Source of the DNA: a virus
Lineage: Duplodnaviria; Heunggongvirae; Uroviricota; Caudoviricetes
Strand: one strand, 5' to 3'
Virus record (IMG/VR): IMGVR_UViG_2778261246_000008
Length of the DNA stretch: 23,044 nt
Shown: positions 3,771 through 10,845 of the stretch, piece by piece
How the letters are laid out: every line of letters begins with the position of its first letter
Numbering within the stretch: the stretch's first letter is position 1
Notes under the pieces: model-generated
Databases searched by the model: none
The model's input: the letters and a program-made list of their open reading frames with translations, nothing else
Told to the model about the DNA's origin: nothing
Made by a program: the position numbers and the translations under genes

Positions 3771-6593
3771 ATGACGGCAGAGTACATCAGGGACTGGCAA
3801 CAACCGCGCCACGCAGTGGGGCGTGAAGGAACGGGGATCCCCGCTCCTGAATCCGCGCTTTCCTCCTGGCTGGATGCCTACCGGGTAGAGAACGAGCGCC
3901 GCCAGGAAATGGCTGATGCGGCCTTCTCCGCCACGCCACTGGGCAACCTGATTAATAAAAGCCTGGACGCACAGGAAAAACAGGACAAAACCATCACACT
4001 GGCAGGAGACGCCAGAAAACAGGCACGCGGCGCGGTGGATGAAGCCATGGCCTCGCTGCGCCTGCTGCCGTCCTATCTGCGCGATCCGCTTATTCGCCAC
4101 CTCTCCTTCCTGCGCAAAAAACAGGAAGCCGATCGCCGGAAAGGCAAAAAGAGCTGGCAGGCGGAACGCTATGCACGCGGAACCCTGCGCAAAATATTCG
4201 AACGTCTGGATCGCACTGACGGACACTGGCTGACACCGGGTTATCGCTCCCTTGCCGGACGCGAACGCCTGGACGATTTGCTTTACCTGCCGCAGCTCAA
4301 CAAACACCAGATACAGACGCTGGCCACCATGACGGCGGCGATGTTCAGCAGCACCTTCGAAAAACTCTGCGATGGCTTTGGCGCGACCGATGGCGAACTG
4401 ACCATGGATGTAACGCTGAAGGCGTATCAGATGCTGGCCCGCATGGCGTTACACCTGCACATCATGCCTCCACATTATGACGCACTGACAACAGATAAAG
4501 ACCGGAGGAACGAACCGGACACGGAGCTGCTGCCGGGCGCAATCCTTCGCCTGACCTGTGCGGAATGGTGGAAACGCAAACTGTGGCTGTTACGTTGCGA
4601 GTGGAGAGAAGAACAACTCCGCGCCGCCTGTCTGGTTTCCAGAAAAACATCACCCTATCTGAGCCAGGACGCGTTAAGCGAGTTTCGCGCACAGCGCGAG
4701 AAAACACGCGATTTCCTGAAAAGTTTCATGCTGGAAAACGAAGACGGGTTCACGATTGATCTCGAGACAGTGTATTACGCGGGAGTAAGTAACCCGGTTC
4801 ACCGTAAGGCAGAAATGATGGCCACCATGAAGGGGCTGGAACTTCTGGCCGAAGCCCGTGGCGACAAAGCGGTGTTTCTGACTGTCACCTGCCCGTCAAA
4901 ATACCACGCCACAACAGAGAACGGTCATCCGAATCCCAAATGGAACGGGGCCACCATGCGCGACTCCAGCGATTACCTAGTTAACACGTTTTTTGCAGCG
5001 GTCCGCAAGAAACTGAACCGCGACGGCCTGCGCTGGTATGGCATCCGCACGGTGGAGCCTCACCATGACGGCACCGTGCACTGGCATATGATGGTCTTTG
5101 CTCATCCGGAAGAAATCGACACCATTGTGTCCCACACCCGCGATATTGCCATTCAGGAAGATCGTCACGAGCTGGGTGATGATATTACCCCACGCTTTAA
5201 GGCGGAGTACGTCGACGGCTCAAAAGGCACGCCAACCAGCTACATCGCCACCTACATCGGAAAGAACCTGGACAGCCGCGCCGTGGATGGCATCGACCCG
5301 AAAACGGGCAAGCCACGCGTTGACCACGAAACAGGTAAATCAATGGCCGAGAGCGTGGAGCGCGCCATCGGCTGGGCGCGCCTTCACCGGGTCCGCCAGT
5401 TCCAGTTCTTTGGCATCCCCTCCCGTCAGGTGTGGCGTGAACTCCGCCGCCTTGCCAGCCAGATGGCACGCAACCCGGAAGGCCCGCAACGGCTGAAGGA
5501 TGACGCAATGGATGCGGTACTCGCTGCCGCTGATGCCGGATGTTTTGCCACCTACATTGAAAAACAGGGTGGCGTACTTGTTCCGCGCAAGGACTACCTG
5601 ATTCGCACAGCCTACGACCTCGCAGATGAGCTGAACGATTACGGCGAACAGAGTGTACAGATTTACGGGATCTGGTCGCCATTCATCGGGGAATCCTCCC
5701 GTGTGTGCACGCATCCGGATAACTGGAAGCTGGTAAGACGTAAACCGGAAGCGGAAGACAGCGCCCGCGAAAATGGTTTTGACCTTCAGGGCGGCCCTGC
5801 CGCCCCTTGGACTCGTGGCAATAACTGTCCCCGTGTACAGGAAACGGACAACAACGGGACAGAACAGCCGGAAGAACGGCCAGCACCGTGGCCGCAGCTC
5901 CCTGATGGCGTTGAAGTGAACGAATGGATGCGCTCACTGAAACGACACGAACGCCGGGCGCTGATGCGTTCGCTTCGTGACAAACAGGCAAAAAACAGCA
6001 GCGATGAAATGCAGAGCTGGACACAGAGCCGCAAACAGCCACGGCCTTTGCCTGATAACCACGAATTACTCGCTAAAGAATGGCGGGAGTCTGCTGAATC
6101 TCTCGGCCTGCATATCGGTGAACAACAGATGCAGCACCTGTTACGGGGCGGCAGTCTGTACGTTGACGGCAGCATCATTGCACCGCAGGGATTTGAAATT
6201 GTACGCAAACCGGATACCCGCCCGGACAGCCGAATCACGCAGCTCTGGCAGCGCCTGAGCCGTAATCATGGCGTAAGCAGCACGGAGATCCGCCATAACC
6301 CGGTCGCCAGCTATCTGGCACAGCTGGGGGCATCAGACCCTGAAGCCGCCGCACGCCTGGCATCCACACTTCAGCAGGACCAGAACACCATGAAAACACC
6401 CGTTACCGTGCTTTCTGACATGCTGCGCGCCATCCGCGACGCAGAGCACGCACAGAGAATCAGTGAAACCACTGAACGCGCCAGCCGCAAAGCAGACCTG
6501 CTGCGGGGTGGCATGACCAGTGGAAACAAAAAACAGACAGAAACGGGATTCACAAATCCCATAAATGAGCAAAAAACGTGCCGCGATATATGA
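3771..6593 (+). CDS. A: Rolling-circle replication initiator / endonuclease, P2 gpA family
   Basis: 940-aa ORF with the HUH metal-binding motif (TVHWHMMVF) and the paired catalytic tyrosines (TSYIATYIGKN) typical of P2 A-type initiators. Position after the early small genes matches P2. Confidence 0.9.
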   Translation: MTAEYIRDWQQPRHAVGREGTGIPAPESALSSWLDAYRVENERRQEMADAAFSATPLGNLINKSLDAQEKQDKTITLAGDARKQARGAVDEAMASLRLLPSYLRDPLIRHLSFLRKKQEADRRKGKKSWQAERYARGTLRKIFERLDRTDGHWLTPGYRSLAGRERLDDLLYLPQLNKHQIQTLATMTAAMFSSTFEKLCDGFGATDGELTMDVTLKAYQMLARMALHLHIMPPHYDALTTDKDRRNEPDTELLPGAILRLTCAEWWKRKLWLLRCEWREEQLRAACLVSRKTSPYLSQDALSEFRAQREKTRDFLKSFMLENEDGFTIDLETVYYAGVSNPVHRKAEMMATMKGLELLAEARGDKAVFLTVTCPSKYHATTENGHPNPKWNGATMRDSSDYLVNTFFAAVRKKLNRDGLRWYGIRTVEPHHDGTVHWHMMVFAHPEEIDTIVSHTRDIAIQEDRHELGDDITPRFKAEYVDGSKGTPTSYIATYIGKNLDSRAVDGIDPKTGKPRVDHETGKSMAESVERAIGWARLHRVRQFQFFGIPSRQVWRELRRLASQMARNPEGPQRLKDDAMDAVLAAADAGCFATYIEKQGGVLVPRKDYLIRTAYDLADELNDYGEQSVQIYGIWSPFIGESSRVCTHPDNWKLVRRKPEAEDSARENGFDLQGGPAAPWTRGNNCPRVQETDNNGTEQPEERPAPWPQLPDGVEVNEWMRSLKRHERRALMRSLRDKQAKNSSDEMQSWTQSRKQPRPLPDNHELLAKEWRESAESLGLHIGEQQMQHLLRGGSLYVDGSIIAPQGFEIVRKPDTRPDSRITQLWQRLSRNHGVSSTEIRHNPVASYLAQLGASDPEAAARLASTLQQDQNTMKTPVTVLSDMLRAIRDAEHAQRISETTERASRKADLLRGGMTSGNKKQTETGFTNPINEQKTCRDI

Positions 6594-6669: not shown

Positions 6670-7629
6670 ATGAAAATTTGTATCGACGACGGCTCCACCA
6701 ACATCAAGCTGGCATGGACTGAGAACGGCGAACGCCGCAACGCCATCAGCCCGAACAGCTTCAAGTCGGAATGGTCTGCGCCGTTCGGTGGCTCGCAGCC
6801 CGCGAACTACATGCTTGATGGCGTGCGCTATGGTTTTGATCCGGTCAGCGATCGCTTTGTCCAGACGACCGACACGCAATACCAGTACAGCGATGTGAAT
6901 GTCATTGCCATTCATCACGCGCTGGTCAAATCAGGCATCACGCCACAGGAGGTGGATGTGGTTGTCACCCTGCCATTGAGCGAGTATTTCGACACAAACG
7001 CACAGCCGGACATGGCCAACATCAGCCGCAAAAAAGCGAACGTTATGCGCCCGGTGGAGTACCAGAACGGCGAAACATTCACTATCCGTAACGTACGGGT
7101 TATGCCTGAATCCATTCCGGCTGGCTTTAAGGCACTGGCTGACATGAGTCCGTTTGAATCCCTGCTGATTGTGGATTTGGGCGGAACCACTCTGGATGTG
7201 GCAAAGGTTCAGGGGCAACTGGCAGGTATCAGCCAGGTGTTTTGCGATCCACACGTAGGCGTTTCTCTGATGGCCGATGCCGTACTGTCGGTGATGGCCA
7301 CTAACGGTATGCGCACCAGTCACCACATCGCCAATACCATTATCGAACATCGCCATAATGAAGCCTGGCTGCGCCAGCACATCCACAATGACGCGCATTA
7401 CGCCAGCCTGATGGCGATTATTCGTGAAAAGGAAGAAACACTGAAACAACGCGTGATCCGCGCGCTGGCGGGTTTTTCGGGTTACGGGCGGGTGATGGTT
7501 GTCGGTGGCGGGGCGGAGATTGTGGCACCCGCTATCCGCGAAGCCTGCGGAGTTAATGCGACTTTCATCGCGGACGGGGTGCCACAGTTTGCTCTGGTTA
7601 ATGGGCTGTACGCAATGGACAAGGAGTAA
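6670..7629 (+). CDS. parM: Actin-like ATPase of the ParM/StbA family
   Basis: The N-terminus MKICIDDGSTNIKL, plus SPNSFK, YSDVNVIAIHHAL, VMPESIPAG, LLIVDLGGTTLD and VVGGGAE, line up with the phosphate-1, connect and adenosine motifs of plasmid R1 ParM as recalled. AAGGA Shine-Dalgarno upstream. Confidence 0.85.
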   Translation: MKICIDDGSTNIKLAWTENGERRNAISPNSFKSEWSAPFGGSQPANYMLDGVRYGFDPVSDRFVQTTDTQYQYSDVNVIAIHHALVKSGITPQEVDVVVTLPLSEYFDTNAQPDMANISRKKANVMRPVEYQNGETFTIRNVRVMPESIPAGFKALADMSPFESLLIVDLGGTTLDVAKVQGQLAGISQVFCDPHVGVSLMADAVLSVMATNGMRTSHHIANTIIEHRHNEAWLRQHIHNDAHYASLMAIIREKEETLKQRVIRALAGFSGYGRVMVVGGGAEIVAPAIREACGVNATFIADGVPQFALVNGLYAMDKE

Positions 7630-7633
7630 ACCA

Positions 7634-7945
7634 ATGACGACACCAACCAGACGGATAAGTTTCTATCTGAAGCCCGCCGCCGTCAAGAACGAAGGTGAAG
7701 CATGCGCCTGGCTGGACAGCCTTACACCAGAAGCGCGCAAAAGCGGCCAACGCGTGGCTTTTCTGGCCGGGCTGGCACTTCTGAAAATGAATCCGGCAGA
7801 GGCTTACCGACTGGCTGCATGGGCTGATGATGAAGCGTTATCAGTGACACAAACCAGGACAGAACGCCCCGCGTCACAGCCAGTATCAACCGCACAGATA
7901 ACCAGTCAGATGGCTGGAAATATCCGGGCGTTATTTCCCGAATAA
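7634..7945 (+). CDS. parR: ParR/StbB-like adaptor, probable ribbon-helix-helix DNA-binding protein
   Basis: Immediately downstream of parM with an AAGGAG Shine-Dalgarno. RISFYLKPAAV...AFLAGLALL...IRALFPE parallels the R1 ParR pattern from memory. Size (103 aa) and position fit the family. Confidence 0.6.
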   Translation: MTTPTRRISFYLKPAAVKNEGEACAWLDSLTPEARKSGQRVAFLAGLALLKMNPAEAYRLAAWADDEALSVTQTRTERPASQPVSTAQITSQMAGNIRALFPE

Positions 7946-8008
7946 CACAACATCAGTGCGCATCCGCCCTGATGACTTTAACCCGGGAACATAAACAAGG
8001 GGGACACA

Positions 8009-8344
8009 ATGCAACGCATTGACAGAGAAAAAGCGCAGCGACTGATTGAGCGGATGGAAGCGCTGGCGAAAGAAGAAAATGTCAACATCCAAAAAATAGC
8101 TGAATGTGGCCAGATAGTTCTTCGTCGTGAAAAAGACCTCAAACAACTGATGTCTGGCGAAACCAGCAAAACATGGACTTCAGGTGAGGAGACGATTTAT
8201 TGCAGCTTCTGCAATAAATCCCAGTACGAAGTCACAAAGGTGATTGCCGGACCGTCTGTTTACATCTGCAATGAGTGCGTTGATTTGTGCAATGAAGTTA
8301 TCAGGAGAGAAGTGACAGACCATGAAGAAAAAACGCATGAATGA
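8009..8344 (+). CDS. Stand-alone ClpX zinc-binding-domain-like protein (C4 zinc ribbon) with an unrelated N-terminal helical extension
   Basis: The C-terminal segment [40 protein letters not shown] is near-colinear with the N-terminal zinc-binding domain of bacterial ClpX (CSFC...CxxC), but there is no AAA+ module. AGGGGGA Shine-Dalgarno. Confidence 0.8.
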
Positions 8345-8510
8345 CGAATTTGACGGCTTTTAATTTTATCGGGGCGCACTGTCGCCCTGCATGGAGAAAA
8401 ACAATAAAAAAGATGAATAACTGCTCATGTCAGACGCGCTGCGGGCAAGTCTGGCACCCTGCCCTGTCTCCGCAAAGGCTGTTGTCTTAACACGACAGAG
8501 TATGCCAGCA

Positions 8511-8918
8511 TTAAATATAATCTTCTTCGTAGTCGCTGATTAATTCATTGCCATAATCAGACAGCAATTTCAAAGCAAAGGTAACTTCCTCAAGGGTAGC
8601 TATCCCCATTGCTGAAAACACCGTTAATTTAACCAGCAGCAGGGAGTTTGAAAGTTCGGAAGAGTTCATCATTAAAAATATTGATGCAGCCTGAAAAGCT
8701 GTGCGTTTATTCCCATCATGAAAGGCATGAGCCTTGGCTATACCAATCAAATACATAGCAGCCAGAGCATGAATATCATCAACCCCTTCATAGTAGTGTA
8801 GTGTCCTGACGCGATTTAAAGCACCTTCAAGTAGCCCGTCATTGGCATTTCCGCTCTGGGGTAAAGTTTCAGCATGGATACGTTCTACTTGTTCTTTTGA
8901 CAAAAACACTATGTCCAT
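8511..8918 (-). CDS. doc: Doc-family toxin (Fic/Doc fold)
   Basis: Contains the Fic/Doc motif HAFHDGNKRTA. Its start overlaps the stop of the upstream antitoxin gene as ATGA on the minus strand. AT-rich relative to the phage backbone. Confidence 0.85.
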   Translation of the reverse strand: MDIVFLSKEQVERIHAETLPQSGNANDGLLEGALNRVRTLHYYEGVDDIHALAAMYLIGIAKAHAFHDGNKRTAFQAASIFLMMNSSELSNSLLLVKLTVFSAMGIATLEEVTFALKLLSDYGNELISDYEEDYI

Positions 8919-9274
8919 CAGTTATCCTCAAGCTTTTTAATGATATCCGCATGTTTTTCTCTTGTACGCTTCATTGCATCTTCAAAAGACAATCCTTTTT
9001 TTCTCTGTGCGACAAGAGCTGGATGACGTTTTTCCAGATCTCTCACTGCATTTATTAAGAGTGGTTGCTTCATTTTGTTTATTTGATCCCGCAGTTTTTT
9101 GGTTTTGCCAAGGACAGCCCGTATTTCAGGACTAAGATCAGAACCAGCAAGAACAACATCCTTCCCTCCCTGCGCCGTGATAACGACACTGCCACCGGAA
9201 GAAAGGTAATCCAGAATTTCACTCAGGTTCTCACGAAATTCATCATCAGTTACAGTTTTCATATTCATTTCCAT
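8918..9274 (-). CDS. phd: Phd/YefM-family antitoxin
   Basis: Small acidic protein immediately upstream of doc and translationally coupled to it. The N-terminus (KTVTDDEFRENLSEILDYL) fits the Phd/YefM pattern. The true start may be one of the internal ATGs (MEMNMK). Confidence 0.7.
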   Translation of the reverse strand: MEMNMKTVTDDEFRENLSEILDYLSSGGSVVITAQGGKDVVLAGSDLSPEIRAVLGKTKKLRDQINKMKQPLLINAVRDLEKRHPALVAQRKKGLSFEDAMKRTREKHADIIKKLEDN

Positions 9275-9798: not shown

Positions 9799-10845
9799 TC
9801 AGGATGTGGGCTGGGTGTCCAGCAGTGCGTAAGGGTTAAATCGGATCACCTCTTCGCCAAGCCAGTCATTGATATGCTTCATGGCCTCCATGACGGGCAT
9901 CAGCTCGTTAATTGCGTAAACCCGCGCGGCCTTCTCCACATCACCAAACGCACTTTTTTCGCCCGGCATCGCCCCCATCAGTTGCGGCGGAACGCGGTGC
10001 GCAGCCAGCACATCATCACGGGATGCCGCCTTAACATTCATGAACTCATCCTTTGCGGTGATCTGCTGGAACGGCAAAATTTGCACCCCCTCTTTGCCAC
10101 CGTTGGGGGCATGAATGAGCACGTTTTTAAACGCACCACCACCACGTGCACCCTGTAGCGTTTCTTTCAGGGAGTCCATGCTTTCGCGGTTTACCTGCGC
10201 TGCACCGATGTAGATGATGCACCCGGCGTGGGATCCGTTGTCGTAATACAGTTTTCTGAACATGTCCGCCGAATGAGACAGGCTGGCCGAGAGTAATGCG
10301 CCAAGATATTCCGGCATGCCGTAGATTTCCTGGTTAATGTCAGGATTCATCAGGTGGCACACTTTACCAGGGCGAAACTGAAACGCATCCTTGCCATCCT
10401 GCACATACCACCATGATTCAAGATCGCTTCCGCGTCGCATGTATTTCGCCAGGGCGTGCCGTAATTTAAGCGGTTCGCCGAGCATATTGCTTCGAAGCTC
10501 AAGGAATGCGTTACCGAACACAAACCAGTCCAGCGCCAGCGCCGAGAAATCCTGCCGGGAAAGCAGCGGGTGCGGAATATAGCAGCCGAGCAATACATTG
10601 CGCTTAAAGTAAAGCGCAGACTGATGCCAGGACGTTTGCCGGGCAGCTCTTGCCAGACCGTACCAGTCTACCGGGGTTTCATACCACCGCCCGTTATCAG
10701 CACAGTACATATTGTCCAGCAAATCATGCCCGGTCAGGCGATAAGGACCATCAAAAGTGAATGCACTGAGCGACGATTCTTTCCTGAGTGCATCAGCGAG
10801 ATCAATGCGTGAACTCATGCGCACTTTTTTATTTTTTCTGCTCAT
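9799..10845 (-). CDS. Q: Portal protein (P2 gpQ family)
   Basis: 348-aa ORF adjacent to the putative cos and directly downstream of the large terminase gene, with a 1-nt ATGA overlap. Order and size match P2 Q. Confidence 0.88.
   Translation of the reverse strand: MSRKNKKVRMSSRIDLADALRKESSLSAFTFDGPYRLTGHDLLDNMYCADNGRWYETPVDWYGLARAARQTSWHQSALYFKRNVLLGCYIPHPLLSRQDFSALALDWFVFGNAFLELRSNMLGEPLKLRHALAKYMRRGSDLESWWYVQDGKDAFQFRPGKVCHLMNPDINQEIYGMPEYLGALLSASLSHSADMFRKLYYDNGSHAGCIIYIGAAQVNRESMDSLKETLQGARGGGAFKNVLIHAPNGGKEGVQILPFQQITAKDEFMNVKAASRDDVLAAHRVPPQLMGAMPGEKSAFGDVEKAARVYAINELMPVMEAMKHINDWLGEEVIRFNPYALLDTQPTS

Follow-up and report, generated by a model that had tools for sequence, protein, structure and literature searches.

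The DNA analyzed here (the window, 23,044 nucleotides over its whole length) is a P88-type prophage (Xuanwuvirus, Peduoviridae, P2-like) of Escherichia coli. Between its replication endonuclease and portal genes lie a partition cassette, a toxin–antitoxin pair and a small open reading frame for a stand-alone ClpX-type zinc-binding domain (ZBD) protein, hereafter the ZBD gene (Table 1). The 2.8 kb around this gene are 100% identical in strains C7 and C3, and the C7 prophage adjoins btuC. The site is the left edge of the gpA–gpQ hotspot of P2-like phages, which holds mostly defense and other accessory genes, and about one quarter of P2-like phages have a putative partition system in the hotspot, perhaps being maintained as plasmids (Rousset et al. 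2022, PMC9122126). The window itself has an actin-type ParM/ParR cassette (6670–7945) within an integrated P2-like prophage. Its replication endonuclease comprises 940 amino acids, with a C-terminal part that is variable in relatives (88–100% identity, some truncations). P2 gpA has a length of ∼761 amino acids, and the window endonuclease is well above this.

Table 1. Coordinates of the ZBD gene, the parts of its product and the neighboring genes in the window
Feature	Position	Strand	Remarks
Replication endonuclease	3771-6593		First in gene order
parM	6670-7629	+	Context
parR	7634-7945	+	Context; 63-nt gap to ZBD gene
Shine-Dalgarno-like purine-rich AAGGGGGA	7997..8004	+	4 nt before ATG; read from the sequence
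ZBD gene (stand-alone ClpX-ZBD protein)	8009..8344	+	ATG start, 111 codons + stop; WP_001561007.1, PHROG 6797
Helical hairpin, residues 1-48 (helices 6-22, 27-48)	8009..8152	+	AlphaFold2 (AF2) model; dN/dS 0.06-0.57
Flexible linker, residues 49-61	8153..8191	+	Low pLDDT; length and sequence variable; near-neutral dN/dS
C4 treble-clef ZBD, residues 64-99	8198..8305	+	Pfam, PDB sequences, Foldseek; dN/dS 0.05-0.46
Charged C-terminal tail, residues 100-111	8306..8341	+	Extends the ZBD helix (AF2 model); end varies among relatives
doc	8511-8918	-	Convergent with ZBD gene, 166 bp downstream
phd	8918-9274	-	Convergent with ZBD gene
Portal	9799-10845	-	Last in gene order

The product of the ZBD gene is identical to a RefSeq protein named “ClpX C4-type zinc finger protein” and has a full-length match to phrog_6797 (E = 1.6e-57, residues 1–105 against profile positions 5–106 of 107), a family labeled “unknown function” to which P88 gp19 and D6 orf93 also belong. 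The exact locus has been entered in a 2022 supplementary table on P2-like phages, and the domain call is thus already present in RefSeq, PHROGs and the published literature. A full-text literature search returned no functional study on the family or on other stand-alone ZBD proteins of phages. The name given to the gene in GenBank and older records is “carboxylate--amine ligase” in the window (8009–8344), in P88 (gp19, L002 5410–5742) and in D6 (orf93, L167 3480–3800); this is a spurious, propagated misannotation, unsupported by any domain search. A promoter scan of the 63-nt gap after parR found no consensus sigma-70 promoter, so the ZBD gene is probably transcribed by read-through from the early/replication operon. 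For a LexA box or a Tum-like antirepressor, a reading of the same gap gave no support, as it revealed no SOS box.

The C-terminal part of the protein is a ClpX-type ZBD. Pfam PF06689 (zf-C4_ClpX) matches residues 64–99 with E = 3.1e-17 and 62.6 bits against a cut-off of 27, covering profile positions 2–38 of 39, and a phmmer search against PDB sequences placed the E. coli ClpX ZBD (1ovx, 2ds5) at E-values of 2e-19 to 1e-18, with ClpX N-domains as the only significant matches and query positions equal to the ClpX position plus 50. The zinc ligands C65, C68, C87, and C90 (CxxC...CxxC) align with C15, C18, C37, and C40 of ClpX, and every full-length family member examined has kept the four cysteines. 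The ClpX hydrophobic-patch residues F16 and I46 correspond to F67 and V97 here (I97 in most relatives), and the patch is kept in every lineage. We modeled the 111-residue protein with AlphaFold2 on nine family sequences (mean pLDDT 79). In the ZBD part, pLDDT reaches 84–90, and the predicted fold, a zinc ribbon with a long C-terminal helix (residues 88–109), superposes on 2ds5, 2ds6, and 2ds8 in Foldseek with an rmsd of 0.7 Å and TM scores of 0.87–0.91. The originally proposed likeness to the ClpX N-domain is therefore significant by profile, by sequence and by predicted fold. Its description as an almost residue-for-residue copy is a slight overstatement, if right in essence: 29 of 36 residues in the Pfam core and 30 of 45 over residues 60–104 are identical to MG1655 ClpX.

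The missing motor, also part of the original prediction, is confirmed: the NCBIfam clpX models (TIGR00382 / NF003745) score only 48–49 bits against cut-offs of 359–371, their match is limited to residues 60–108, and by these models the AAA+ ATPase module with its ClpP-docking loops is absent from the 111-residue protein. Whereas the ZBD is N-terminal in ClpX, in the phage protein it is C-terminal and follows an orphan hairpin. The phage protein further differs from ClpX in being phage encoded and in having diverged from it long ago at the DNA level.

The sequence ahead of the ZBD is ∼61 residues long, where the original prediction gave ∼65 residues of unrelated helical sequence; the helices are indeed there, in the form of a hairpin, but the segment is a conserved, selected domain specific to the family. 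A hairpin-only profile search of 1.84 billion representative proteins gave 15 matches, 14 of them small proteins (29–129 amino acids) of the ZBD family or truncated or frameshifted fragments of these, and the remaining one, apparently spurious, a 1176-residue protein with 13 short matching segments. No homologs of the hairpin were found in Pfam or by Foldseek in the PDB and BFVD, and the best hit of a profile search against the PDB had an E-value of 0.21. The hairpin is thus an orphan domain and likely gives the protein its specificity. The linker that joins it to the ZBD has pLDDT values below 50 at residues 52–59. At the other end of the protein, the varying end of the tail marks a mosaic junction with the downstream cargo, the alignment to P88 stopping at window position 8341. 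A motif in helix 2 (LRRE) loosely resembles the tethering motifs of SspB (LRVVK) and UmuD (LREI); lying within a predicted helix, it was judged unconvincing as an XB-like motif.

The family is confined to temperate phages of Escherichia and Salmonella, namely P88-type P2-like prophages and D6-like phage-plasmids; by cluster names, the sources of its named members are Escherichia (coli, albertii, marmotae, and fergusonii) and Salmonella enterica. In the 41 P88-type loci of IMG/VR, the ZBD gene begins ∼66 nt after parR and is followed by 0.8–2.5 kb of variable cargo before the portal gene. The same slot is occupied in two diverged P2-like types, one without parMR (L048/49) and one with a ZBD protein only 35% identical to that of the window (L063/64). 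Phage-plasmids of the D6 type and plasmid records of 85–110 kb encode a homolog ∼50% identical (D6 orf93), which lies among the small ead/Ea22-type genes of an early operon, a setting unrelated to the P2-like one. Among 5,426 complete E. coli genomes, 112 carry the P88-type gene (coverage of at least 80%) and ∼105 plasmid places carry the phage-plasmid variant, so that ∼2% of the genomes have a chromosomal ZBD gene and another ∼2% have one on phage-plasmids. One Salmonella variant occurs on more than 700 contigs. Stand-alone ZBD proteins are also encoded by unrelated phages of Pseudomonas, Caulobacter, and Bacillus.

In related phages, similarity stops either just before the ZBD start codon or exactly at the stop codon. 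These breaks at the gene ends, together with the sparse presence of the gene, identify it as an accessory module that is complete in itself and sits at the hotspot's left edge.

Recent capture from the host can be ruled out. The ZBD codons share 64% nucleotide identity with MG1655 clpX, third positions are identical at only 18 of 45 codons (40%), dS is saturated and not computable, and a word-11 blastn search of the 5,426 complete E. coli genomes with the ZBD gene did not detect host clpX. Within the family, dN/dS ranges from 0.05 to 0.46 for the ZBD and from 0.06 to 0.57 for the hairpin, which indicates purifying selection on both folded parts. Most comparisons give ∼0.3–1.6 for the linker, and two pairs whose linkers are identical give 0. 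It is against this background that a non-functional clpX fragment, picked up by a phage, has to be judged. Truncated and frameshifted copies do exist in several prophages (L006 4551–4739; proteins P0010, P0018, P0126, and P0128), from which it follows that the gene is dispensable and decays in some lysogens. A mere fragment is nevertheless effectively refuted by the conservation of the protein in the face of synonymous sites saturated relative to host clpX, by purifying dN/dS in both folded parts across lineages, and by the full-length architecture being kept in two phage backbones and two genera.

Each ZBD core of the family is nearer to E. coli ClpX than to the other cores, a star-like pattern that is expected if the lineages simply diverged from a ClpX-like ancestor. 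The phage-plasmid lineage has VKDC instead of VDLC, and the core of one divergent member (P0125) shares only 18 of 36 residues with ClpX, indicating that exact ClpX mimicry is not universally required. The window core, with 29 of 36 residues shared with E. coli ClpX, shares 27–29 of 36 with betaproteobacterial ClpX among the matches listed. Being equally near to both, it carries no signal of host-specific tuning. Among the same listed matches (L087–L166), Comamonadaceae ClpX is as similar to the window core as is enterobacterial ClpX.

The neighbors of the ZBD gene invite two readings in which it would serve an adjoining module. One makes its product an accessory factor of the ParMR partition cassette, in keeping with its fixed position 66 nt past parR in P2-like relatives, even where ParR is only 40–56% identical. 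However, the 2.8-kb query region has matches in 1,307 of the 5,426 complete E. coli genomes, mostly in its parM–parR part only, compared with about 112 that have the ZBD gene; in related phages, similarity breaks off exactly where parR ends; and neither L048/L049 nor any of the phage-plasmid homologs has parMR adjacent. We therefore give a role in partition hardly any credence.

The other reading, which takes up the rationale of the original prediction, makes the ZBD protein a third component of the phd-doc module that tunes ClpXP turnover of the Phd antitoxin, the Phd of phage P1 reportedly being a ClpXP substrate. The two are adjacent in the window, as originally noted; the diverged P2-like L063 also has doc-phd close to its ZBD gene, upstream of a parR-like gene, and D6 carries both doc and the ZBD gene, 8 kb apart. 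A specific link does not follow, since the pairing occurs in only 18 of the ∼112 E. coli carriers and in 4 of the 41 P88-type IMG/VR loci. P88 and most IMG/VR relatives carry other downstream cargo, and tblastn finds no match to Doc in P88, PhiR44_2, or the ∼108-kb elements PhiR41_1 and CMS-2020a, all of which have the ZBD gene. Conversely, P1 has phd-doc without a ZBD gene, and its Doc is only 32% identical to that of the window. The convergent orientation further means that the ZBD gene and doc-phd are not co-transcribed. The doc-phd pair is one among alternative cargo modules at this site and its adjacency to the ZBD gene is incidental, making a tripartite module very improbable.

The cassette has features of its own. 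The Phd-like antitoxin is long (118 amino acids) and scores 29.2 bits, just below the Pfam PhdYeFM cut-off of 29.8, and Doc has weak matches to the PADLOC candidate systems PDC-S23 and PDC-M59B. Given its place in a defense hotspot, the cassette may act in phage exclusion rather than in addiction.

Immediately downstream of the ZBD gene, a 49-codon open reading frame (8341–8490) overlaps the stop codon in an ATGA, and may be a remnant of translational coupling at a recombination junction. In P88, pEc1079_2, and pEF-4, real but mutually unrelated genes start at this overlap, and in D6 there is none. A toxin–antitoxin-like pairing with a translationally coupled downstream gene is accordingly unsupported. 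More generally, the downstream genes differ among P88, pEc1079_2, pEF-4, D6, L048, and L063/64, which have no conserved partner in common. A known component of anti-phage defense was also considered for the ZBD protein itself and rejected, PADLOC-DB 2.0 returning 0 families at E ≤ 0.01.

With its ZBD joined to an orphan hairpin, the protein is a phage-borne paralog of an unfoldase N-domain. Phages and prophages have several modulators of host AAA+ proteases, including lambda RexB (ClpXP), T4 PinA and T7 Gp4.5 (both Lon), and SPO1 Gp53 (ClpCP). Like these, it may be a phage gene product that retunes host proteolysis, which some of them do by stabilizing antitoxins; to our knowledge, none of the four copies a protease domain, and no sequence relationship to them is expected. 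A free, phage-encoded ClpX-type ZBD is also present in the 65-residue protein of Pseudomonas phage PP9W2 (PHROG 12435 type), but these short proteins have no hairpin, are ∼45% identical in the ZBD and belong to other hosts. The closest analog in architecture, as judged for the phage protein from Pfam and the AF2 model, is mycobacterial ClpC2, in which an N-terminal dimerization domain, unrelated to the unfoldase, is fused to a free copy of the ClpC1 N-domain and which acts as a molecular sponge (PMC10030653). ClpC2 differs in unfoldase, fold and ligand (cyclomarin A) and is chromosomal, not viral. Moreover, its sponge function has been demonstrated, whereas the function of the phage ZBD is putative, and the resemblance is one of analogy, not homology.

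What a free ZBD might do is suggested by the role of this domain in ClpX. The ClpX N-domain recognizes FtsZ, MuA, and adaptors and is dispensable for ssrA tags (PMC5415555). Its hydrophobic side pocket (F16/I46) is needed for stimulation by trigger factor and overlaps both the site for lambda O and that for SspB and RssB (Rizzolo 2021, PMC7804408). We consider it nearly an even call that the phage protein is a functional two-domain accessory protein, acting in trans as a competitor or modulator of recognition by the ClpX N-domain. Its zinc binding, dimerization, ligand binding and any effect on ClpXP are putative and drawn from the likeness to ClpX. In this proposal, the free ZBD copy would act on the recognition network of the ClpX N-domain by binding SspB, RssB, trigger factor, lambda O, MuA, or FtsZ and competing with ClpX for them. 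Such competition would shift the choice of ClpXP targets and leave the protease itself unblocked, with little effect expected on substrates of the ssrA type, which are engaged by the pore directly. The hairpin would probably add a second binding or oligomerization function, and with it specificity or avidity. The isolated ClpX ZBD reportedly forms a very stable dimer, in which the primary sites for lambda O and SspB reside. With ZBD–ligand affinities in the weak, micromolar range, a decoy would depend on high expression or on avidity.

A decoy or dominant-negative role had been suggested from the outset, and as far as sequence can tell the idea is reasonable: it is compatible with the conserved patch of F67 and V97/I97 and with purifying selection. 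The presence of the gene in two unrelated phage backbones is the pattern expected of a self-contained module for host manipulation. Stated in its more specific form, namely that the ZBD copy sequesters adaptors and N-domain substrates or heterodimerizes with ClpX, thereby reprogramming the host and phage targets of ClpXP as the first viral decoy of an AAA+ unfoldase recognition domain, with a new specificity contributed by the orphan hairpin, the proposal is possible and held tentatively.

Two further explanations accept a functional protein and differ in what the ZBD is for. The phage ZBD might heterodimerize with the ZBD of host ClpX and so hang the hairpin on the unfoldase as a plug-in subunit, where it could recruit a new substrate (as an adaptor) or block one ZBD pair (as an anti-adaptor). 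Heterodimerization is proposed because the dimer-forming helix and hairpin are nearly identical to those of the ClpX ZBD, with segment 78–98 differing from ClpX residues 28–48 at only 4 of 21 positions. The orphan N-terminal hairpin is, for its part, conserved and selected as a functional appendage should be, and rates of lambda O degradation are known to depend on how many free ZBD dimers ClpX carries (PMC7804408). However, the phage-plasmid and P0125 lineages have changed within this very segment. Subunit exchange may also be slow if the ClpX ZBD dimer is as stable as reported, and on balance we think a plug-in subunit quite unlikely.

Alternatively, the ZBD may have been adopted as a compact dimerization or peptide-binding module for some other phage, satellite or host target, in which case the protein could be a regulator, or a defense or anti-defense factor of the P2 hotspot, with proteolysis unaffected. 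The mostly defensive and accessory content of the gpA–gpQ hotspot (PMC9122126) fits such a role, as do the divergence of some lineages from ClpX and the stand-alone ZBD proteins of the unrelated Pseudomonas, Caulobacter, and Bacillus phages; ClpC2 is in addition a DNA-binding autoregulator (PMC10030653). The conserved ClpX ligand patch argues against a role independent of ClpXP, as do the failure of the PADLOC models to match and the lack of a conserved adjoining partner gene. We regard such a role as unlikely, though deserving serious consideration.

If competition for ClpX N-domain ligands proves correct, phages would possess a portable means to stabilize chosen ClpXP targets without poisoning the protease, and domain mimicry would join, as a new mechanism, the few ways in which phages modulate the proteolysis of their hosts. 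Among the proteins under ClpXP control are lambda O, MuA, FtsZ, sigma S (through RssB), SOS proteins, and several antitoxins. As the family is common in E. coli and Salmonella, lysogen physiology could be widely affected. The protein would also be a natural tool to separate N-domain-dependent from pore-dependent recognition by ClpXP. Should it be unrelated to ClpXP, it would be one more uncharacterized hotspot gene. The hotspot also holds another zinc-finger gene in one of the diverged P2-like types, where an Ogr/Delta-like gene separates the ZBD gene from the portal gene (L063 7075–7410; L064 6656–6985, minus strand).
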